64,000 nucleotides of DNA from an uncultured Methanosarcinaceae archaeon (GTDB lineage Archaea; Halobacteriota; Methanosarcinia; Methanosarcinales; Methanosarcinaceae). Numbering within the stretch: the stretch's first letter is position 1; each line of letters begins with the position of its first letter. Shown piece by piece: positions 1,839 through 59,757 of this stretch. The translations under genes and the position numbers were made by a program. Location: assembly GCA_963847185.1 (NCBI GenBank), contig CAWJYV010000008.1, positions 96,001-160,000 on the forward strand, read 5' to 3'. Below the pieces are notes generated by a model. It was not told the origin of the DNA and ran no database searches. It saw nothing but the letters and a program-made list of their open reading frames with translations.

Positions 1839-3782
1839 ATGAACGGAGGAATCAGAATAAGTAAGTTAACAATGTTACTCTTAGCTCTTCTTATTTTAGT
1901 TTCAATTCCAGGACTCGGAAACGCGGCTGAAATTTTTGTTCAGCCAGGAAATTCAATACAAACTGCTGTGAACAATGCAAGTCCTGGTGACATAATTACA
2001 GTAAAAGCAGGTAACTATTCAGAAAATATTAAAATCACTACAGGAAATCTTACGCTCAGATCGGAATCCGGAAACCCTGATAATACCATAATCCAGGCAA
2101 AGAGTTTTGGCAATATATTTCTTTTACAAGGAAACAATATAAAAATCACCGGCTTCAAGATTATTGGCTCAACCAGATTCAGTTGCGTAGGAGTCAATCT
2201 GTCTTCAGCCAGTAACTGTACGGTTGAGAACAACAAATTTTTGAACAATGCGCGTGGAATCTTTCTCCTCAGGTCCAATGGGAATGCGGTATTAAAGAAT
2301 AATATTGCTGATAGTAGAGAATATGGAATTGCACTTCAATATTCTACGAATAATATTGTCTCAGGAAATATTGCTTCTGAAAGTCAAAGAGGAATTTATT
2401 TTGGCACTTCTGATGATAATATCTTCTCACGCAATATTATCCAAAACAATAGTGTCTTCGGTCTTTTTGTCTGTGGCAGAAGTGATAGGAATCTGATTTA
2501 CGATAATTACTTCAATGACACCAGTATGACTATCCGAAATGGAACCGGAAACGTCTATTATATTACAAAAATCGCAGGTACTAACATCGTCGGCGGACCC
2601 AATATAGGAGGCAACTTCTGGGCAAAACCTGACGGAAAAGGATTTTCGCAGACTGCGGTGGATAAAGATGGGGACGGAATTTCCGATTCTGTTTACAAGA
2701 ACTTAATGGGAAGCAAATATACAGACTCCTTCCCTCTCGTTGATCCGAACTCCCCTGAGCCAGTCCTTCCTGTTGCAGCGTTCAGCAGCAATATAAGTTC
2801 AGGAGACTCACCTCTTGTTGTCAGCTTTGCTGATAAAAGCACAGGGACGCCCAGCACATGGAAATGGAATTTTGGAGACGGAACTTATTCGACAGGCAAA
2901 AATCCAGTACATACCTATTCTGCGGCAGGAAATTACACAGTGTCACTTACAGTAAGCAGTAATGCAGGTAGCAATACAACAATTAAATCGAATTATATAA
3001 AAGTGACAGCGAATAATACAACACAAAAACCTGTCGTAAGCTTCTGGGGCTCACGAACTTCAGGGACGGCTCCCCTGATTCTAGGCTTTACTGATGCAAG
3101 CACAGGAACACCAACTGCATGGAACTGGAGTTTTGGAGATGGAACGTACTCAACAGTCCAGGGTCCAAGGCATACTTACTCAAAAGCAGGAAATTATACG
3201 GTAACGCTTACCGCAAGCAATGCAGCCGGAGGCGGGACGAAAACCAGAACTGATTACATAAAGGTAGCGGCGCCTGTACAGAAGCCAGTTGCTGGTTTCA
3301 GCAGCAATGTTACTTCCGGAAACTTACCCTTACATGTGGCTTTCACTGATGCAAGTATAGGAACACCGACGACATGGAACTGGAGCTTTGGAGACAGCAC
3401 GTATTCAACCCAGCAGAATCCTATACACACCTATTCAAAGTCAGGAAGCTACACAATAACACTTACAGCAAGCAATTCTGCAGGCAGTAATACGACAACA
3501 AAGTCCGGTTATATAAAAGTGACAGAAGCCGCACAAAAACCTGTTGTAAGCTTCTGGGGTTCACGAACTTCAGGAACTGCTCCACTGACTATCGGTTTTA
3601 CGGATTCAAGTACAGAGTTCCCAATTGCGTGGAACTGGAGTTTTGGAGATGGAACCTATTCAACAGTCCAAAGCCCAAGACATACTTACTCAAAAGCAGG
3701 AAATTATACGGTAACGCTTACGGCAAGCAATGAAGTCGGAAGCGGGACGAAAACAAGAAGTAACTATATAAAAATAGCATAA
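1839..3782 (+). CDS. Secreted cell-surface protein, NosD/CASH beta-helix plus 4 PKD domains
   Basis: Hydrophobic signal peptide; beta-helix repeats; GGPNIGGNFWAKPDG motif; four W-x-W-x-FGD PKD units. Confidence 0.9.
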   Translation: MNGGIRISKLTMLLLALLILVSIPGLGNAAEIFVQPGNSIQTAVNNASPGDIITVKAGNYSENIKITTGNLTLRSESGNPDNTIIQAKSFGNIFLLQGNNIKITGFKIIGSTRFSCVGVNLSSASNCTVENNKFLNNARGIFLLRSNGNAVLKNNIADSREYGIALQYSTNNIVSGNIASESQRGIYFGTSDDNIFSRNIIQNNSVFGLFVCGRSDRNLIYDNYFNDTSMTIRNGTGNVYYITKIAGTNIVGGPNIGGNFWAKPDGKGFSQTAVDKDGDGISDSVYKNLMGSKYTDSFPLVDPNSPEPVLPVAAFSSNISSGDSPLVVSFADKSTGTPSTWKWNFGDGTYSTGKNPVHTYSAAGNYTVSLTVSSNAGSNTTIKSNYIKVTANNTTQKPVVSFWGSRTSGTAPLILGFTDASTGTPTAWNWSFGDGTYSTVQGPRHTYSKAGNYTVTLTASNAAGGGTKTRTDYIKVAAPVQKPVAGFSSNVTSGNLPLHVAFTDASIGTPTTWNWSFGDSTYSTQQNPIHTYSKSGSYTITLTASNSAGSNTTTKSGYIKVTEAAQKPVVSFWGSRTSGTAPLTIGFTDSSTEFPIAWNWSFGDGTYSTVQSPRHTYSKAGNYTVTLTASNEVGSGTKTRSNYIKIA

Positions 3783-4314: not shown

Positions 4315-7044
4315 TTGAATAAAATAATGAAGGATGAAAGCGTGAAAAAAAATCCTGATGAAAAAAACGATTCAAGTCTGAAAAAGGTAATAATAACCCT
4401 CAGTGAACTTCTGATTATATTTCTGGTCATAGGTTTAACGTTGGTAATGACAGGTACAGAGATTTCAGAAAACAACAGTACATTAAGTGTCGAGGAAAAT
4501 ACCGTAAACAATGAGACCTCAACCCCAGAAAGAAGCTACCAGCTACCTTTAAATGGAAATCTCACTGATGAAAAAGGCTTGAACATTGAGAATAACTCCG
4601 AAAATCTCGGACTCGCACCAGAAAATCCTGAATTTGTCAAGGAAACAAGGAACAAACTATACACTCAAACAGAACAGCCTGCAGAAGAGAATAAAACAGG
4701 TCTAACACCTGCACCTCTGGACCTTCAGTATCTCAGCGATATTTCTACTGTCGAAACGTCTGCTTCGGACAGTTATGACCCGCGGGATGCAAATTCTATT
4801 GTCCAGGCAGCGGGGAATGAAGTATCTGCTTCAAATAGCTATGATCTACGTGTTCTCAATAAGGTGACAAGTGTAAAAGATCAGGCTGATGCAGGAGTTT
4901 GCTGGACATTTGCAAGTTATGCTTCCTTAGAATCATATTTAAAGCCTGGAGAAAATCGAGATTTTTCTGAAAATCACATGAAAAACCTGCTTTCTTCTGC
5001 ATATGCGGAAGGTTTCGACCGTGGTGCCAATGACGGTGGAAATAGTTTTCAGTCTGCTGCTTATCTTACCCGCTGGGACGGGCCTGTAGATGAAAACGAC
5101 GATCCTTACTCTCCCTACTCAGAAATCTCCTCTGAGAGTTTGCCTTTACAGAAACACGTACAGAACGTACTTTTTATCCCGGATAGGGACAGTCCTCTTG
5201 ATAATGATGAGATTAAGTGGGCAGTCCAGAATTACGGAGCTGTATATACTACAATGTACTATGATAATTTTTATTCCCCTGCTAATTACAGCTATTTCTA
5301 TAATGGGACTTCACGATCTAACCATGCTGTGGCCATTGTAGGCTGGAACGACTCTTTTGACAGAAACAAATTTTCCAGGGTCCCTGCAGGAAATGGGGCA
5401 TTTATAATAAAAAACAGCTGGGGTTCCGGATGGGGTGAAAACGGATATTTCTATGTTTCATATTATGATCCAAGGATAGGAACCTACAATACAGTTATGA
5501 CGGCTGAAAGCCCTGATAATTATAAATCCATCTACCAGTACGATCCCTTTGGCTGGGTTAGCAGTGTGGGATACTCCAACCCCACTTGCTGGTGTGCAAA
5601 TGTCTTTACTGCAAAATCCGACGAAATTCTCAAAGCTGTAAGTTTCTATACAACGGACTCAAATTGCAACTATGAAATTTATATATATACTAATCCGGAG
5701 ACTGGCCCGATAAATCAATCAGGTCCTGTTCTCTCAAAGAGCGGGACAATCTCTGCAGCAGGCTATCACACAGTCCCCCTGGATTCTGATATTGAAATCC
5801 AAAACGGCCAAAAGTTCTCAGTTGTTCTGAAGTTCAACACCCCTGAATACGGTTATCCGGTTGCTATAGAAAAGCCCATTACAGGCTGGAGCAGTAAAGC
5901 AAAAGCAAACGCAGGAGAGAGCTTCATTAGTAGTAGCGGACAAACCTGGATAGACATTACGACTTATTTCTCGAATTCAAACGTATGCATCAAGGCTTTT
6001 ACTGTGCCAGGAACTCTGTCAGGAACTGTTCCTCCTGTAGCAAACTTCTCTGTAACTCCAAACTCAGGAAATGCTCCTCTTCAGATCAGTTTTACTGATA
6101 CCAGTACAGGATCCCCTACTGCCTGGAACTGGAACTTTGGAGACGGAAATACTTCAAGCGAACAGAATCCAAAGCATACTTATTTTGCAGCAGGAAATTA
6201 CACGGTAGCATTTACAGTGAGCAATGCTGCCGGGACAGACACAGTAACAAGGGCAGGTTACATAAATGTAAAAACAGCTCCTCCAAAGTTGCGTGCTGAT
6301 TTCTCTGCCTCTCCGACCTCAGGGAATGCCCCAATGAGAGTTGTTTTTACTGATGCCAGTACAGGGTCTCCAACTTCATGGAGATGGAGTTTTGGAGACG
6401 GGACATATTCAACCTCCAAGAACCCTTCACACACATACAGTAAAGCAGGGAAATATACGATCAGTTTGACAGTAAGAAATACTGCTGGGAGTATTATAGC
6501 AACGAAATCCGGCTATATAAATGTAGGAGCTCCCCTGAAAGCTCCGGTTTCCGCGTTTTCCGCATCTACAACTTCAGGATATGCTCCAATTAAAGTCACG
6601 TTTACAGACAGCAGCGCAAATTCACCGACTTCATGGAGATGGAATTTTGGAGATGGAATTACCTCAACCGAGCAGAATCCGGAGCATACGTACAGTAAAA
6701 CGGGAAGATATACCGTCAGCCTGGTAGTAAGGAATTCTATAGGAAGTAACACAGCAACGAAATCTAGATATATAAATGTCTTAACTCCCTTGAAAGTTCC
6801 GATTGCTTCTCTTTCAGCCTCCCCTACTTCTGGAAAGGCGCCTTTGAGGGTACAGTTTACTGACAGGAGCACAGAATCTCCAATTTCGTGGAGATGGAGT
6901 TTTGGGGACGGGACTTATTCCACATCAAAAAATCCTGCACATACATACAGCAAAGCAGGAAGGTACACTGTTACGCTGACAACAACAAATGCCAGAGGAA
7001 GTAACACTAAAACAGTAGCCGGGTATATTACAGTCTCCAGATAA
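4315..7044 (+). CDS. Papain-like (C1A) cysteine peptidase with lectin-like domain and 4 PKD domains
   Basis: KDQ...GVCWTF (catalytic Gln/Cys), NHAVAIVGW (His), IKNSWG (Asn); N-terminal TM segment; PKD repeats. Confidence 0.9.
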   Translation: MNKIMKDESVKKNPDEKNDSSLKKVIITLSELLIIFLVIGLTLVMTGTEISENNSTLSVEENTVNNETSTPERSYQLPLNGNLTDEKGLNIENNSENLGLAPENPEFVKETRNKLYTQTEQPAEENKTGLTPAPLDLQYLSDISTVETSASDSYDPRDANSIVQAAGNEVSASNSYDLRVLNKVTSVKDQADAGVCWTFASYASLESYLKPGENRDFSENHMKNLLSSAYAEGFDRGANDGGNSFQSAAYLTRWDGPVDENDDPYSPYSEISSESLPLQKHVQNVLFIPDRDSPLDNDEIKWAVQNYGAVYTTMYYDNFYSPANYSYFYNGTSRSNHAVAIVGWNDSFDRNKFSRVPAGNGAFIIKNSWGSGWGENGYFYVSYYDPRIGTYNTVMTAESPDNYKSIYQYDPFGWVSSVGYSNPTCWCANVFTAKSDEILKAVSFYTTDSNCNYEIYIYTNPETGPINQSGPVLSKSGTISAAGYHTVPLDSDIEIQNGQKFSVVLKFNTPEYGYPVAIEKPITGWSSKAKANAGESFISSSGQTWIDITTYFSNSNVCIKAFTVPGTLSGTVPPVANFSVTPNSGNAPLQISFTDTSTGSPTAWNWNFGDGNTSSEQNPKHTYFAAGNYTVAFTVSNAAGTDTVTRAGYINVKTAPPKLRADFSASPTSGNAPMRVVFTDASTGSPTSWRWSFGDGTYSTSKNPSHTYSKAGKYTISLTVRNTAGSIIATKSGYINVGAPLKAPVSAFSASTTSGYAPIKVTFTDSSANSPTSWRWNFGDGITSTEQNPEHTYSKTGRYTVSLVVRNSIGSNTATKSRYINVLTPLKVPIASLSASPTSGKAPLRVQFTDRSTESPISWRWSFGDGTYSTSKNPAHTYSKAGRYTVTLTTTNARGSNTKTVAGYITVSR

Positions 7045-53210: not shown

Positions 53211-55611
53211 ACCTTTTTCACTCCACTTATTTCAATCTCCTTTTCACTCTCTCTGGCATTCTTTTCCTTCTTCTGTTGAATACTGCTCTTCTATTTCTTC
53301 TCCAAATTCCTTTTCAGCTTCTTCCCAGCCCCCTTCAAGTTTGTCTTCTATTCCTCCTACTCCTTCTTCTACTTCCTCTTCTACACCGAAGTTTCATATT
53401 CACTGCCTTCAGGCTCGATTCTCTGGCCTTTTCTTTCAGGCTTCTGGCTCTTTAAATCCGATTCTCCAGGGGGGACCATCATGGCAATCAGGTCAGGAGA
53501 AGCTATTTGTTTTACGAAACGAGGATCTCCGAGTTCATCAGAGTAAATTCTGTATATTTTCTTTGAAATGTCGTTCTGGTTGAAAGCGCCAGGCCCTAAT
53601 TCCAGGATGTAATCCCCGTGTTTCCGGACAGCAGAAGCAGGCCCGCCTATTACCCTGGTCTCACCTTTAAGTTCAAGCCCGACTGCAATTCCAAGAGGCA
53701 CATCCTTGAAGTAATTGCGATCTCCTCTTATGATGAAGGCTCCTTTCTTTACGTATTCTCCAGACTCGGGAGTCTTTGTCACCTGCTCGGCCTTAACCCA
53801 GTAGCAGTCTCCACTGAAATGTCCGGCTTTCCAGAGGCTGGAATAAGATACTGCAAACTGCGCAACTTCCTGGAGAGTAGATTCGGGAACCTCTTCTCCT
53901 CCGGTCTTGACAACAGTCAGGGGAGCTCCTGGAGTCTGGGTATGGAAGACAATATCTCTTTTTTCCATATATTTTTTGAAAACTTCCTCATTAGTATCGG
54001 CATCTCTGCCTCCTACAACAAGGAAACCATCTGAAGATACAAACCACCTGAACCTGTCATACCAGTGCTTTTTCCTGGAAGCCTGCAGTTTTCTTCCTGC
54101 TTTTGCAGCCTTTGCTGCAGCCTTTTTCTCCACAGCTTTTTTTGTATCCTCGATAGCCCTGATAGCTCCATCTTTCTTCTTGGTGAACTTCTTAACTTTC
54201 TCGTAATATTCCTGAGCGTTCTGAGGCACTGTCTTCCGGATATCGAGATTAGCGCTCTTTCCATCCAGATCCACAGTTACGGTCCCTGTTTTCTGGTCAA
54301 TGTTTGTGATCTTTTGAGCTGCAGGTGCGGTTTTTTTGGCCTGTTTCAGGATAGATCGGATCTCGTCCCAGGAATACCCTTTCGCTCTTGCGCCGTTGAG
54401 TACGGAAAAAAGCTCTTCTATAAGCTGGTAATTGGCATAAATTATTTCTGCAAGGGTATTATTTTTCTCAATTTCCTTCTCGAATTTTTTAAGGCTCTCT
54501 TCCTGCTGAAGAAGCCTTCTTTCGAAAACGCCAAGGGTTTTTTCCTTTTTTTCAGCCGCTTTTACCTCTGCAACCTGTTCCAGAGCCTTTTTTCCGAAAA
54601 ACTCGTCAAGTGCCGTATTAAAGGAGTCAAAATACTCTTTTTCGTATTCTGAATAACGAATAAGATCAAAAGGCAGTACATCGAAAGTTTCCAGCTTTCC
54701 GTTAATTTCTTTTTTGACGTGCTGGGGCTTTAATTTCGGAGCTTCAGCTTCAGCCCCAGTTTCTGGTTTTAATTTCAATTCAGCTTCAATTCCAGCTTCC
54801 AGTTTCAGTTTCAGTTTCAATCTCAGTCTGCGGTTTAATTCCGGATTTTGATTCTATTTCACCCTCTATCTTTTCTTCAGCCTCGACGGTAGTTCTTCCG
54901 GCTAAATAGAGGGAAAAATAGATCCTGCATTGCACTGCAGAGCTTTGAGGCATCTTCCTCAGATACTTCCTTTGCGGGCTTTGATTTCTCGATTCCTGCC
55001 CTGGCACAGACTTCTTCTGCCAGAACTCCTCCAAGATTGAACCTTGTGGCAATTGTCCGGACAACATCAGCCGTAGATTTCGACAAAGCCTCCATAAGAT
55101 CCGAAACTTTAGCACTTATCGGACTCAACTGCGCTTCAGGCAGTTCGTAAATTTCCCCGCTCCTGAGCCGGCGGTCCTTCAGAGTCACAGGATTCATAGG
55201 CAGAATGATTTTGTTTTCAGTATCAACGATAAGCACGTTCCCCCGAGCAAAAAGCTCAACAATAAGAGTGTTTCTGACCCCTGCTCTCTCAATCCCTATT
55301 TTTACAACCCTGTCAAAATCGTGCTGCTCAAAAGAAACAATCCTGCCTCCCGTCAGGTATTTTCTAAGCAGCATTGGAAAAGCCTGAGGAAGTTCAGGAC
55401 TTGCCCTGAAGTGTTTACTTAAATGGATGCGCTTCCCGGCTTCAATAACCAGGTTGTCCCTTCCCTGGTGAAAAACGTAAAGATTGATGCGGATCTCCTC
55501 ACTTGTAGTCTGGTAAATCTTCCCTACCTTCGCATCAATAATGGACTTCGGCCCAGCTGACAGCTCGGCAACAACTGCAGCAACGTCGGCACTTGACATA
55601 TCCTGTTTCAT
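53207..55611 (-). pseudogene. rqcH: Ribosome quality-control factor RqcH (NFACT), split by frameshifts as sequenced
   Basis: N-half 55611-54877 (MKQDMSSAD, FDR, ELF..GN); C-half from about 54800 (NAQ.YY, W..RFRWF.SSDG, GGRDA..NE, PESGEY..KGAF); about four indels in Glu-rich linkers; restored tail ends in an ATGA overlap with pelota. Confidence 0.8.
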
Positions 55612-55680
55612 AAAGTGGATATAAGAGAGGCTTTTCGTATAAGTGTTACTGTTGAATTTTTTTAGAGTAAGGTCATACCT

Positions 55681-55810
55681 CCATAGCTGAGCCACCCGAA
55701 TTGCGATTCGGGATCGCAGGAAATCCAAGATTTCCTGGGAGTTGCACTGTAAGTGCAACAGTCCGCTGTCCTTTTCACTCGCTGCGCTCGCTCAAGCAGA
55801 CTAATTTATG
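55681..55810 (-). repeat. Third copy of the structured intergenic repeat
   Basis: Reverse complement reads CATAAATTAGTCTGCTTGAGCG...GTGAAAAGGAC...GTTGCACTTACAGTGCAAC..CAGGAAATC/GATTTCCTG..CCCGAAT-CGCA-ATTCGGG. Confidence 0.8.
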
Positions 55811-55949: not shown

Positions 55950-56552
55950 TTAGAGTTCCCTCAAGAGGCGAAAGCCTAAGCAGTCATTGCAGTTTTTGGG
56001 GCCGACTCTGTCGCGAGACGCTGAACGGCAATCTCTAGCACTGCGGATCCAGCTACCGCCCCGATATACTGGATACGAGTCGCCTCCGTCTTCCCAGACA
56101 CTATCATCTGAAGGAGAACCATTGTAGTTCTCATGCCATTCGTCCTGAACCCATTCCCAGACATTCCCATACATATCATAAAGACCCCAGGAGTTGGGTT
56201 TCTTCTGGCCAACTGAATGAGTTTCAGAACCTGAATTTTCATCATACCATGCGTAATTATTAAGCTTTGAGTCATCTTCACCAAAGGAATACCTGTGTTT
56301 GTGTACCAGCTCTACAGGCATATTCCCATTCAGCTTCTGACGGTAAACGATATTTATCGGTGCCTTCCTTTTCATTCAGTTTTTTAACAAATTCTTGAAT
56401 CATCATTCCCACGAAACACATTCTACAGGCCGATCTTCACCCTTGAAATTAGATGGATTATTTCCCATAATCGTTTCCCACTGTTTTTGAGTACCGGATA
56501 TTTACCCATGTAAAAAGAGTTTTGAATTGTTACTTTATGAGCTGGGAGTTCG
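55950..56552 (-). pseudogene. FGE-sulfatase (CLec-fold) C-terminal domain of the caspase gene, frameshifted
   Basis: Fragments [64 protein letters not shown] and GFRL lie in alternating frames. Confidence 0.8.
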
Positions 56553-57689
56553 TTAGATATAACTATCCTTCTCTTCCAGAGGTGAGCCCATCATGAATTT
56601 TCCGGCTGGGATAAGTATGAATTCAATACCTGTAGAAGGATAGGTGAAAGTTTTGGAGGTTTTTTCATCTTTGAAGATTTTTGAAACATCTAGGTTTCTA
56701 AACCTTGCCAGAATATGTGAATCTTCAATTTCTTCATTTTCCAGGTAGCATTGAACTGTGTGAATATATGTTTTAACACTAATTTTGCCTTCCAGAAGAT
56801 CCTCCAGAGAAGTTCTTATTTCCTCGTCGGTTTCAGTTAGTTCCTCTGATTTTTCATAGGCATCAACAAGGACAATCATAGAGATATCGTAAATAGAGGC
56901 TGGAAGTTCCTTTCGGATATTTTTAACCAATTTGTTTTTCTTTCTTATGAACTCTTTTTCTTTAACTTTTAAGGGGTTCTTTGCAATGAGAAGTTTTCCT
57001 TCGATCTGAGTTTTCATAACTGGAGATTGAGAACTCCTTTTTATTGTTCTGCTGCGGGCATATTCGTACAAATCATTTACGTATATGAGGCCATCTTCGT
57101 CTTCATCTGCACTGCCATCTTCCAGACCTTCCAGCAAGTATTTAGTAAAAACGCCGTGTTTGAGTTCTGTATCCTCTTTGGCTTTCGGTGACCCAATCAG
57201 ACCCGTAGACGTTAGAATAACCGTACCTGAGCCAGAGGAGTAATTAGAAAGTGTTTCTTCTAAATCGTCTCCTTTTATTCCGGCAGCACCACTATAGCAG
57301 CAATCGAGCACAATAATTACTGACTTAAGTGACGGATATGTCATGCATCTGTTGATGTAGTCAAAGTTAAGTGAAGTTGCAAGAGGATAATCTTCTTTAG
57401 TATCCCTGAATAGCAGGCGAAGTCCGTTATCTAAATGCTTTTTACCGTGACCGGAAAAATAGATCAAAATAAGATCGTCACGATTTGCATTTTTCAGCAA
57501 TTTTTCTATTTTGATTCTTGCATCTAAAAAGGTTTCATCTATTGATTCTTCAACCTCATCAAACCCGCAAATATCTTTATTCAGGAGGACCTCTTTCATT
57601 GCGAGAGCATCAGCTACAGCAAATTTCAGTTCTTTATCCGAGCTCGGATAATTATTTCCAATAACAAGCCCTACTTTTTTGCCAGTCAT
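56553..57689 (-). CDS. Caspase-like (peptidase C14) protein, N-terminal part of a caspase-FGE fusion
   Basis: GLVIGNNY, LKFAVADA, YFSGHG (His), LDCCYSG (Cys), HGVFT; ends in the FGE-domain start IEFILIPAGKFMMGS. Confidence 0.88.
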   Translation of the reverse strand: MTGKKVGLVIGNNYPSSDKELKFAVADALAMKEVLLNKDICGFDEVEESIDETFLDARIKIEKLLKNANRDDLILIYFSGHGKKHLDNGLRLLFRDTKEDYPLATSLNFDYINRCMTYPSLKSVIIVLDCCYSGAAGIKGDDLEETLSNYSSGSGTVILTSTGLIGSPKAKEDTELKHGVFTKYLLEGLEDGSADEDEDGLIYVNDLYEYARSRTIKRSSQSPVMKTQIEGKLLIAKNPLKVKEKEFIRKKNKLVKNIRKELPASIYDISMIVLVDAYEKSEELTETDEEIRTSLEDLLEGKISVKTYIHTVQCYLENEEIEDSHILARFRNLDVSKIFKDEKTSKTFTYPSTGIEFILIPAGKFMMGSPLEEKDSYI

Positions 57690-57729
57690 GAAGCTAACAC
57701 ACGAATCTGTTATCGAATATATCGAATAT

Positions 57730-58155
57730 TCACTCTTCTGAACTCATGAAACAATTAAGACCTTGACAGACTGATAGTTGCGGGTTTTCTTCAAAAAACT
57801 TAGATAACTTTTCAAGTGGCAGTTTTGAAATTTTAATCACGACTCCGTCAGGGCATTTCAGCTCGATTTCAGCAGTTGGCCTGTACTCAAGCCACGTTTT
57901 CATTGCTTCAAGAATTATGGCGAAAATTTTTCCTGTTATACCGTAAGCTGCAAGCGTACTGAAAAGATGTATTAAATCGACCTTTTCTCCTTCAAGACCC
58001 TTAAGCTCTAAAGGTTCTATCCAGCCATCAGGCATACTCTTGCAAATTGAGCAATATAACTGACAGCACTGCTCTTGCCAGTACTCAGAAGAATCTTCAA
58101 CGCCTTCGGATTTCAGTATGATAGAGAAATTAGACGTATCAAGAACTTGCTGCAC
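57730..58155 (-). CDS. EACC1-like (effector-associated constant component) small protein
   Basis: G..GEK turn, hydrophobic hairpin, then I.EA.KTWL..RP...IEL..PDG..I.I pattern; directly upstream of the caspase gene. Confidence 0.6.
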   Translation of the reverse strand: MQQVLDTSNFSIILKSEGVEDSSEYWQEQCCQLYCSICKSMPDGWIEPLELKGLEGEKVDLIHLFSTLAAYGITGKIFAIILEAMKTWLEYRPTAEIELKCPDGVVIKISKLPLEKLSKFFEENPQLSVCQGLNCFMSSEE

Positions 58156-58512: not shown

Positions 58513-59757
58513 ATGGACAGTCGAACCGCCCGTTTTTTGAAATCTCGCTTTCAGAATTATTACAAAAATGCCGAAATAGGTCTGCCTGACCACCTGCATA
58601 ACAGGGAATGGGCTTTTATCTTCTATGATGATATGCCTGAAAAAATGATGCACAGGCACAAGTCCTTCGGCTCGCCAGGAGAAACTCTTGATTATCTTTA
58701 TGGGATGGCTCCGGCGCACGTTTACAATTCGGTTGCTTATTATGAATATCCTGACGCAAAGAAAATGAATGAAAAAAACTGGCTTGGGGCAGAACTGATT
58801 TTTGACCTTGATGCAGACCACCTGCCAAATGCTCCGAGAAACTATGCAGATATGCTGGAGCTTGTAAAGAAGGAAACTTTCAAGCTCATGGATTTTCTAC
58901 TAGACGATTTCGGGTTTTCGGAGCAGGAAGTTGAGCTGGTCTTTTCCGGGGGAAGAGGATATCATTTCCACATCAGAAGTCCGAAGGTACTGGCTCTTGG
59001 AAGTGCTGAGAGACGGGAAATCGTAAATTATGTCAGCGGAAAAGATATTGATTTCAAACATTTTTTCAGGGAAGTCGCAATGGATGGAGATTTTGGAGCA
59101 GGGTCAAGGACTTTCAAAGGAATAAAAAATGTGCCTGTAAAGTGCACGCTTGTTGGTTATGATTCAGGATGGGGGAAGAGAATTGCGTTTTATCTTACGG
59201 ATTACATGAAGACAGAATGTGAAAAAAAATACAAGAAGGATATGTTCCCTGAGCTCCGCAGGCATGAGAAAATTGGAAGTACTACAATAAAAAAACTGAT
59301 AAATATTACCAATAGCGAAAATGGCCTAAAGGATATACTGGAGAAAGGAAGGCTGGACTTTGATGTCAGAAACTTTAAGGATATTGCTGCCTATTTTATG
59401 CATGAATCAGTAGAGAATTTTCTGCACAGATTCGGGGCCAGTGTCGATGAACCTGTGACTGCGGATATCAAACGTCTTATCCGGGTTCCGGGGTCTTTGC
59501 ATGGCGGGTCCGGGATGCTTGTAAAGAAACTTGCTTTCTCCGAGCTGGAGAAGTTTGATCCACTTAACGATGCTATTGTCTTTGGTGAAAGGTTGGTAAA
59601 GATATCCGTCTCAAAGCCTTTCTCGGTACAGATGAAGGGTAAGGATTTAAAAATTGAAGAGGGCATACAGGAAGTTCCGGAGTATGCGGCAGTATATCTG
59701 ATTTGTAGAGGTGTTGCAGAATATGGATATAGAAGAAATCAGCCAGACCCTGTATAA
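58513..59757 (+). CDS. priS: DNA primase small subunit
   Basis: REWAF, ELIFDLDADH, FSGGRGYH and DE.VT.DIKRLIR.PGSLH motifs. Confidence 0.95.
   Translation: MDSRTARFLKSRFQNYYKNAEIGLPDHLHNREWAFIFYDDMPEKMMHRHKSFGSPGETLDYLYGMAPAHVYNSVAYYEYPDAKKMNEKNWLGAELIFDLDADHLPNAPRNYADMLELVKKETFKLMDFLLDDFGFSEQEVELVFSGGRGYHFHIRSPKVLALGSAERREIVNYVSGKDIDFKHFFREVAMDGDFGAGSRTFKGIKNVPVKCTLVGYDSGWGKRIAFYLTDYMKTECEKKYKKDMFPELRRHEKIGSTTIKKLINITNSENGLKDILEKGRLDFDVRNFKDIAAYFMHESVENFLHRFGASVDEPVTADIKRLIRVPGSLHGGSGMLVKKLAFSELEKFDPLNDAIVFGERLVKISVSKPFSVQMKGKDLKIEEGIQEVPEYAAVYLICRGVAEYGYRRNQPDPV

Follow-up and report, generated by a model that had tools for sequence, protein, structure and literature searches.

A two-gene EACC1–caspase-type module, probably in decay, between rqcH and priS of a Methanosarcinaceae archaeon

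Gene content of the rqcH–priS gap

The stretch of DNA analyzed here, in the following called the window, comprises 64,000 nucleotides (nt) from the genome of an uncultured Methanosarcinaceae archaeon (GCA_963847185.1, contig CAWJYV010000008.1, positions 96,001 to 160,000). Between the core genes rqcH and priS it contains two open reading frames (ORFs) on the minus strand, namely one for a small EACC1-like protein and, starting 40 nt past its stop codon, one for a caspase, which is followed by the remains of an FGE-sulfatase domain (Table 1). An earlier reading of the letters alone (hereafter the sequence-only reading) had proposed this same-strand pair as a candidate archaeal immune or conflict system, and the pair was recovered exactly where it had been placed. 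The source genome (4.04 Mb in 10 contigs, 99.83% complete) contains a single copy each of the small gene and of an EACC1-type caspase, and the named homologues point to Methanosarcina as its genus. Taken together, it appears probable that the locus represents a Methanosarcina EACC1–caspase two-gene conflict system which is decaying and most likely inactive in the window genome.

The 378 amino acid (aa) product of the second ORF matched Peptidase_C14 (PF00656) with 51 bits at a cut-off of 21.4. The His/Cys dyad named in the sequence-only reading is supported by an alignment of 25 homologues, in which H81 is invariant and C130/C131 are conserved to at least 90%. A model generated with AlphaFold2 (AF2) with a mean predicted local distance difference test (pLDDT) score of 80.9 comprises a caspase-like alpha/beta core up to about residue 237, the previously suggested helical linker (residues 239-341) and the first strands of a next domain. 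The best NCBIfam family was NF047832 (“caspase, EACC1-associated type,” caspase_w_EACC1; E 2.5e-35), and P0090, P0099 and other Methanosarcina homologues already bear this name in public databases. In full-length Methanosarcinales homologues (564-593 aa), a C-terminal FGE-sulfatase domain, which has a C-type-lectin fold, follows in the same frame, while TPR, TIR, S-layer, PKD, PF16640 and DUF1566 domains occur as alternative C-termini within the caspase family. A prediction of the complex between caspase residues 1-245 and the small protein returned a score of 0.00, i.e., no answer, and counts as evidence neither way.

Table 1. Features of the rqcH–priS region in the window, sites of disruption in the caspase–FGE gene and linker–FGE frames at the same position in relatives. 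Indels are given relative to the L012 orthologue; aa, amino acids.
Feature	Position	Strand	Remarks
EACC1-like small protein gene, 141 aa	57730-58155	-	open ORF, apparently intact; GTG start, GGTGA 5 nt upstream
Caspase ORF, 378 aa	56553-57689	-	caspase ~1-237, helical linker ~239-341, first FGE strands (PF00656, AF2 model); ended by frameshift 1
FGE-sulfatase (C-type-lectin-fold) domain remnant	55950-56590	-	broken at four frameshift sites
141-codon open stretch, FGE tail	55950-56375	-	frame is that of the 378-aa ORF; PF03781 87.4 bits
Frameshift site 1	56583-56548		net +16 nt
Frameshift site 2	56492		-1 nt
Frameshift site 3	56405 and 56400		+1 and +1 nt
Frameshift site 4	56295		+1 nt
rqcH	53381-55758	-	flanking core gene
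priS	58513-59757	+	flanking core gene, divergent transcription
Linker–FGE frame, relative G006	L029 2495-3409		
Linker–FGE frame, relative G014	L031 1782-2693		
Linker–FGE frame, relative G013	L032 2746-3585		
Linker–FGE frame, relative G012	L030 4244-5089		

The small protein as a divergent EACC1 homologue and its linkage to caspases

EACC1–caspase pairs were defined as a two-gene conflict system, “System 4,” for which the accessible text reports prevalence among actinobacteria and a sporadic occurrence among proteobacteria (Kaur, Burroughs, Iyer and Aravind; Kaur et al., 2020, eLife, PMC7159879). The module in the window has the same arrangement as this system (PF19953/NF047832), with a 5′ gene for a small protein with a hydrophobic helix and a downstream same-strand gene for an N-terminal caspase with a variable C-terminal domain. 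Homologues of the small ORF (70 at E<=0.01) are mostly 141-143 aa long and 50-97% identical to it; wherever they bear a descriptive name, it is “hypothetical protein,” and as far as sources are named, they come from Methanosarcina and Methanomethylovorans. An alignment of this Methanosarcinales family has 23 invariant columns, including W26, Q27, C30, W88, R92, P93 and G104, and G72, T74 and G75 are conserved to at least 90%.

The connection to EACC1 runs through more distant relatives. When the family profile was searched against 1.84 billion protein representatives, 50 matches were obtained at E<=0.001, and 19 of the 34 aligned members of the set found with the profile matched EACC1 (PF19953; 107 model positions) at E<=1. 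W88 and G104 are conserved to at least 90% in this wider family. The proteins P0209 (library-wide E 1.1e-14 with the family profile) and P0216 (E 2.8e-12) reached 26.4 bits over model positions 6-101 and 25.1 bits over positions 4-102 of PF19953, respectively, and were the two that exceeded the gathering score of 23.6 bits among ten members scanned singly; five others scored 16.9-22.4 bits and three gave no hit. Comparison of the Methanosarcinales family with 14 distant relatives by hhalign yielded a probability of 99.8% (E 6.8e-30, 116 columns), a result that is only partly independent, as these relatives came from the same family profile. A look-up of clusters for the bridging proteins yielded neither an organism nor informative names.

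All these observations suggest that the small protein is a divergent EACC1 homologue, an assignment that holds indirectly, by a transitive link. Against it stand this very transitivity, the lack of any direct match between the 141-aa protein and the EACC1 model of Pfam, either at E<=1 or at E<=10, and the fact that a search of the whole source genome with PF19953 also yielded nothing at E<=10. On the side of the caspase, the score against NF047832 (121.9 bits) stays under the curated cut-off of 140 bits; among its homologues, P0090 (151.8 bits) passes, and P0128 (132.6 bits), P0124 (126.2 bits), P0150 (119.6 bits) and P0074 (114 bits) fail as well. NCBIfam and PADLOC searches of the small ORF gave no match either. 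Thus, the by-eye EACC1 call of the sequence-only reading is borne out through P0209, P0216 and the profile comparison, and finds no counterpart in a direct PF19953 hit.

Within the window protein, EACC1 corresponds to residues ~27-122. The Methanosarcinales family differs from the described system in its archaeal origin, in the length of the 141-aa protein, which exceeds the Pfam model and is missed by it, and in an additional N-terminal strand and C-terminal helix that are specific to it; furthermore, the copy in the window is broken. The earlier description of a central hydrophobic region with a W-L-x-x-R-P motif proved accurate: a hydrophobic segment occupies residues 61-85 (Kyte-Doolittle maximum of 1.69 for 19 residues at 64-82) and is followed by WLEYRP at residues 88-93. 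This segment holds a patch of glycine and other small residues, as in the EACC1 description of a conserved hydrophobic helix with such a patch at its center, given in the available part of the original definition (Kaur et al., 2020, PMC7159879). The AF2 monomer was predicted to adopt a compact alpha+beta fold (mean pLDDT 86.2) whose sole internal low-confidence loop, residues 53-60, lies directly before the hydrophobic segment. A Foldseek search of this model against the PDB produced no match at E<=0.001 but only weak, generic alpha+beta hits.

The small-protein family is tightly linked to EACC1-type caspases in other genomes. In a survey of 26 loci outside the source genome, 25 of them assessable, with a full caspase defined as at least 231 aligned residues, a full caspase followed directly downstream on the same strand at 18 loci and a truncated remnant at five (L040, L041, L045, L046, and L047). 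Two loci had no caspase downstream (L038, L059) and one (L062) ended at a contig edge, so that 23 of the 25 assessable loci have a caspase or its remnant directly behind the small gene. The sequence-only reading would have been contradicted by a small ORF without caspases next to it elsewhere, and the opposite was found. An overlapping set of 16 named contigs comprised eight with a full caspase, three with a truncated one, three with none and two that could not be assessed. At one locus from a metagenome-assembled genome (L002 1306-2367), the place where the caspase would follow the small gene is taken by a 354-codon frame that joins a hydrophobic N-terminal segment to an FGE domain.

With respect to its distribution, the small gene occurred in 24 genomes out of 301 drawn from the class, counting the source genome. 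Excluding the latter, it occurred in 18 of 39 species representatives of Methanosarcina, i.e., in about half of those searched, in three of six from a second genus of the family and, as two weak hits, among 105 from another family. These figures supply the archaeal survey proposed along with the sequence-only reading, and the C-terminal domains joined to the caspase vary (FGE, TPR, TIR, S-layer, PKD).

Probable disruption of the caspase–FGE gene

In the window, the caspase and the FGE-sulfatase domain (PF03781) are not encoded by one ORF. The FGE/C-type-lectin domain that the sequence-only reading assigned to the caspase is present, with 87.4 bits for its tail, and is, as assembled, cut off from it by four frameshift sites and six stop codons, whereas an intact gene had been assumed: the caspase frame closes at 56553, leaving 378 aa, and the copy is probably non-functional. 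A three-frame translation compared with the intact 589-aa homologue P0074 (Methanosarcina sp. DH1) showed the FGE homology passing through frames 1, 2, 1, 0 and 1. The insertions and deletions were placed by aligning the DNA to the 564-aa ORF of L012 (Methanosarcina sp. Z-7115), the closest intact orthologue found (Table 1), and all four sites fall within the N-terminal half of the FGE domain. Compared with L012, the linker additionally carries an in-frame insertion of 27 nt.

In the frame of the caspase, the segment 56553-56375 contains six stop codons, three TAA and three TGA, and no TAG. Since TAG is missing from these stops and the homology itself switches frame, an alternative genetic code or read-through by pyrrolysine was excluded. 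A link to a diversity-generating retroelement was considered and set aside: window and L012 hardly differ in the last ~40 FGE residues, and the rqcH–priS gap contains no reverse-transcriptase gene, with no search aimed at such an element having been made.

The breaks are quite probably real. Where indels could be assigned to a single base, they lie outside long homopolymers, the closest database proteins to the caspase are short too (363, 453, 250, and 274 aa), and independently broken copies are common in the genus; it is on these three observations that the judgment is based. Contigs of relatives assembled from public runs have one extra base at 56491/56492 and two bases fewer at 56400/56405, which agrees with the direction of the indels, these being sequences of relatives and not of the window strain. 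For a general check of the assembly, the relative G012 was used, ~52 kb of which yielded 63 ORFs with 150 codons or more; all were compared with the window, and 36 matched at 60% identity or more, spanning 16360-64000, and rqcH alone mapped in more than one frame. Since 35 of 36 map in a single frame, the assembly does not seem to be generally prone to indels.

The alternative explanation is that the frameshifts are errors of assembly or consensus and that the organism holds an intact and functional module of EACC1 and caspase–linker–FGE as its relatives do. The following findings weigh against decay and can be placed on the side of such errors. The indels sum to +18 nt, so that the last 141 codons return to the frame of the caspase, and the ratio of nonsynonymous to synonymous substitution rates (dN/dS) in pairwise comparison with L012 is still 0.27 for the FGE domain, next to 0.18 for the linker and 0.09 for the caspase. 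Moreover, rqcH is split into ORFs of 293 and 479 aa by two frameshifts ~130 nt apart (54780-54910) in a low-complexity acidic linker, whereas in all five relatives searched it forms one open frame of 757-869 codons; this split may be either a true split or pseudogene or a local fault of the assembly. Six frameshifts in the caspase–FGE gene and rqcH thus fall within ~1.8 kb, a clustering that fits local decay and locally poor assembly equally well. Finally, a search of public runs gave none containing at least half of the words of the stretch and no RNA run, and in the four runs that were aligned there was nothing but short contigs from relatives, with a similarity of mostly 88-95% and none of them from the window organism. 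Nevertheless, the single-frame mapping of the other genes, the position of the placed indels outside long homopolymers, the shortness of the closest database proteins and the independently broken copies in several species, which make decay of this gene a common event, all speak against such errors, and we consider an intact module in this organism to be unlikely, if clearly worth keeping in mind.

If the decay of the caspase–FGE gene is real, it looks recent in view of the low dN/dS values compared with L012. The caspase domain itself is whole and 89% identical to its L012 orthologue.

A second locus with an FGE-sulfatase domain is found elsewhere in the same genome, outside the window (C4:264479-265030), with 67% DNA identity to the FGE part of the module; an EACC1-type caspase was not found at this second locus.

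Turnover of the locus and possible function of the module

At the same locus in relatives, the module was found intact, truncated, disrupted by insertions or deleted. Module-bearing relatives usually show the order priS, a linker–FGE open frame, the small gene, the caspase–linker–FGE gene and rqcH. The caspase breaks off near residue 125 in L040 and L041, near 87 in L045, 64 in L046 and 61 in L047, and it is absent from L038. In all six of these genomes with a truncated or missing caspase, the small ORF is open without internal stop. Relatives without the small gene (G006, G012, G013, and G014) contain only a linker–FGE open frame between priS and rqcH (Table 1). Such frames measure 275-305 codons (280-305 in these four relatives), lack a conserved start codon and still include the last part of the helical linker; they look like 3′ remnants of an older caspase–FGE gene. 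The same linker–FGE frame, of 275-289 codons, is also present upstream of the small gene in the five module loci L003, L006, L007, L012, and L028. The frame on the priS side is missing both in the window and in its closest relative L014, whose priS is 98% identical. The copy in the window, together with its inactivity, is most likely one stage of a recurrent gain and loss at this locus across the genus.

For an intact module, the mechanism can be outlined by analogy with a tested bacterial pair. According to the text available of the respective preprint, the caspase-like domain of KrAvs12 cuts EACC1 of Ktedonobacter into fragments of 5.7 and 7.1 kDa, with Asp49 as predicted site, and mutation of the catalytic Cys abolishes the cleavage (Evans et al., bioRxiv 10.1101/2025.11.14.688446). 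In the same text, toxicity is limited to the C-terminal fragment and needs a trigger-bound sensor, liposomes are permeabilized by cleaved EACC1 only, and an analogy is drawn to bacterial gasdermin systems (Evans et al., 10.1101/2025.11.14.688446). By homology, the FGE-sulfatase/C-type-lectin-fold domain of an intact archaeal module would sense a ligand, probably of viral origin, whereupon the caspase (His81/Cys130) would be activated and would cut its EACC1 partner. Cleavage would probably fall within the exposed loop 53-60 just ahead of the segment 61-85, which is rich in glycine and small residues, and the freed C-terminal fragment of ~9 kDa might oligomerize into membrane pores and kill the infected cell. 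The proposal of the sequence-only reading that the protease cleaves its small partner to release a membrane-active fragment matches what was reported for the bacterial EACC1–caspase pair, in the accessible portion of that work, and may by analogy apply to the archaeal one. That these steps are carried over from the bacterial pair by homology, and that both the cut in loop 53-60 and a sensing function of the FGE domain are themselves conjectural, has to be counted against this interpretation.

The module shares its logic with EACC1–KrAvs12 of Ktedonobacter racemifer, and the layout of the small protein in the AF2 model, i.e., an N-terminal part, an exposed loop and the hydrophobic segment, would be compatible with autoinhibition by the N-terminus and a single cut as in that pair. 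It differs in the sensor: in K. racemifer, phage tail connector proteins act as triggers of an Avs12 STAND NTPase, and here the sensor would be an FGE-sulfatase/C-type-lectin-fold domain. With bacterial gasdermins and their caspase-like proteases it would have in common a protease-gated pore former encoded beside its protease and the context of abortive infection, although the small protein is related to gasdermins neither in sequence nor in fold.

In the window copy, the four frameshift sites would leave a 378-aa caspase-plus-linker protein without sensor next to an EACC1 gene that is still open, and as the sensor domain is lost, the module in the window is most likely inert. It is also conceivable that the sensor-less caspase and EACC1 still work, via the linker, by oligomerization or with a factor acting in trans, or that EACC1 has a role independent of the protease. 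The whole caspase domain with its dyad, its identity to the L012 orthologue and the dN/dS of 0.09 would fit this, as would the EACC1-like ORF remaining open in the six other genomes with a damaged or missing caspase and the many caspase-only homologues of ~240-275 aa in databases, these being entries as deposited. However, chance alone preserves a small ORF far longer than a large one, a low pairwise dN/dS reflects mostly the history before the break, and toxicity of the tested bacterial system required the trigger-bound sensor, as reported in the text at hand (Evans et al.). We therefore hold continued function to be rather improbable, even if the survival of EACC1 beyond its protease in seven genomes, that of the window included, hints at a possible protease-independent role.

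A different division of labor was put forward with the original definition of the system, in which EACC1 was proposed as a membrane sensor: embedded in the membrane, it would activate the caspase, which would then release its own C-terminal domain by autoproteolysis, with the FGE domain acting as effector in the present case (Kaur et al., 2020, PMC7159879, in the portion consulted). The hydrophobic segment with its patch of glycine and small residues would suit such a sensor. Conversely, EACC1 was found to be the substrate, with a C-terminal fragment that is toxic and permeabilizes liposomes, in the part of the preprint available (Evans et al.), the FGE/C-type-lectin-fold domain is a binding module without evident killing activity, and the AF2 monomer (mean pLDDT 86) has the hydrophobic segment packed within a soluble alpha+beta fold. 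The membrane-sensor model thus seems very improbable for the archaeal module. The decaying, most likely inactive EACC1–caspase system remains the reading that we prefer for the window.

The kind of system, its mechanism as tested in bacteria and the database name of the caspase partner are already known. Accordingly, the sequence-only reading, which had presented the system as a candidate, was anticipated in this respect, its kind having been described since 2020 and tested in 2025 and the Methanosarcina caspase homologues having been named before; overall, its observations were partly confirmed and its interpretation was partly supported. What is new here is modest, namely a Methanosarcinales subfamily of EACC1 which is missed by Pfam and listed as “hypothetical” in databases, and a rqcH–priS hotspot with graded states of decay. 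No description of an archaeal EACC1 was found in the literature searched, and the main text of the preprint does not use the word “Archaea” (Evans et al., 10.1101/2025.11.14.688446); archaeal members may be listed in the supplementary tables of this preprint and of Kaur et al. The EACC1–caspase system is hereby extended to a Methanosarcinales subfamily of the small effector, and the rqcH–priS gap, with the module in every state from intact to deleted, lends itself to studies of how costly suicide systems turn over in archaea. In the annotation of the window genome, the appropriate labels would be “probable pseudogene” for the caspase–FGE gene and “EACC1-like” for the small ORF. By analogy, it might further be speculated that the intact relatives represent the first archaeal protease-gated pore-forming system of abortive infection, with EACC1 adapted to ether-lipid membranes, a lectin-fold sensor for Methanosarcina viruses and the rqcH–priS gap as a genus-wide hotspot of gain, breakage and overwriting; this broader picture is tentative and, as a whole, rather doubtful.

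Some relatives illustrate how individual copies were rearranged. In G004, an insert of ~3 kb (L028 4213-7224) interrupts the caspase after residue 125, and the FGE domain is frameshifted too. The insert encodes two proteins of 387 and 289 aa with N-terminal hydrophobic segments, which are possibly secreted or located in the membrane; a transposase-like ORF was not evident in it, and the families of its two proteins were not searched. The breakpoint in the G004 caspase recurs in L004, L005, and L040. In L038 (= L003) and L016, the small gene directly adjoins rqcH. In L013, two inverted copies of one ORF (3134-3732 and 5640-5999) flank a linker–FGE frame, the small gene and a caspase stump of 61 residues; the repeated ORFs may be copies of an insertion sequence (IS), which would give a layout resembling a composite transposon. 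In L007, the stretch between the caspase–FGE gene and rqcH includes an additional piece similar to the beginning of the small gene (6669-6800; residues 1-44, 41% identity), which may be a trace of a further tandem module.

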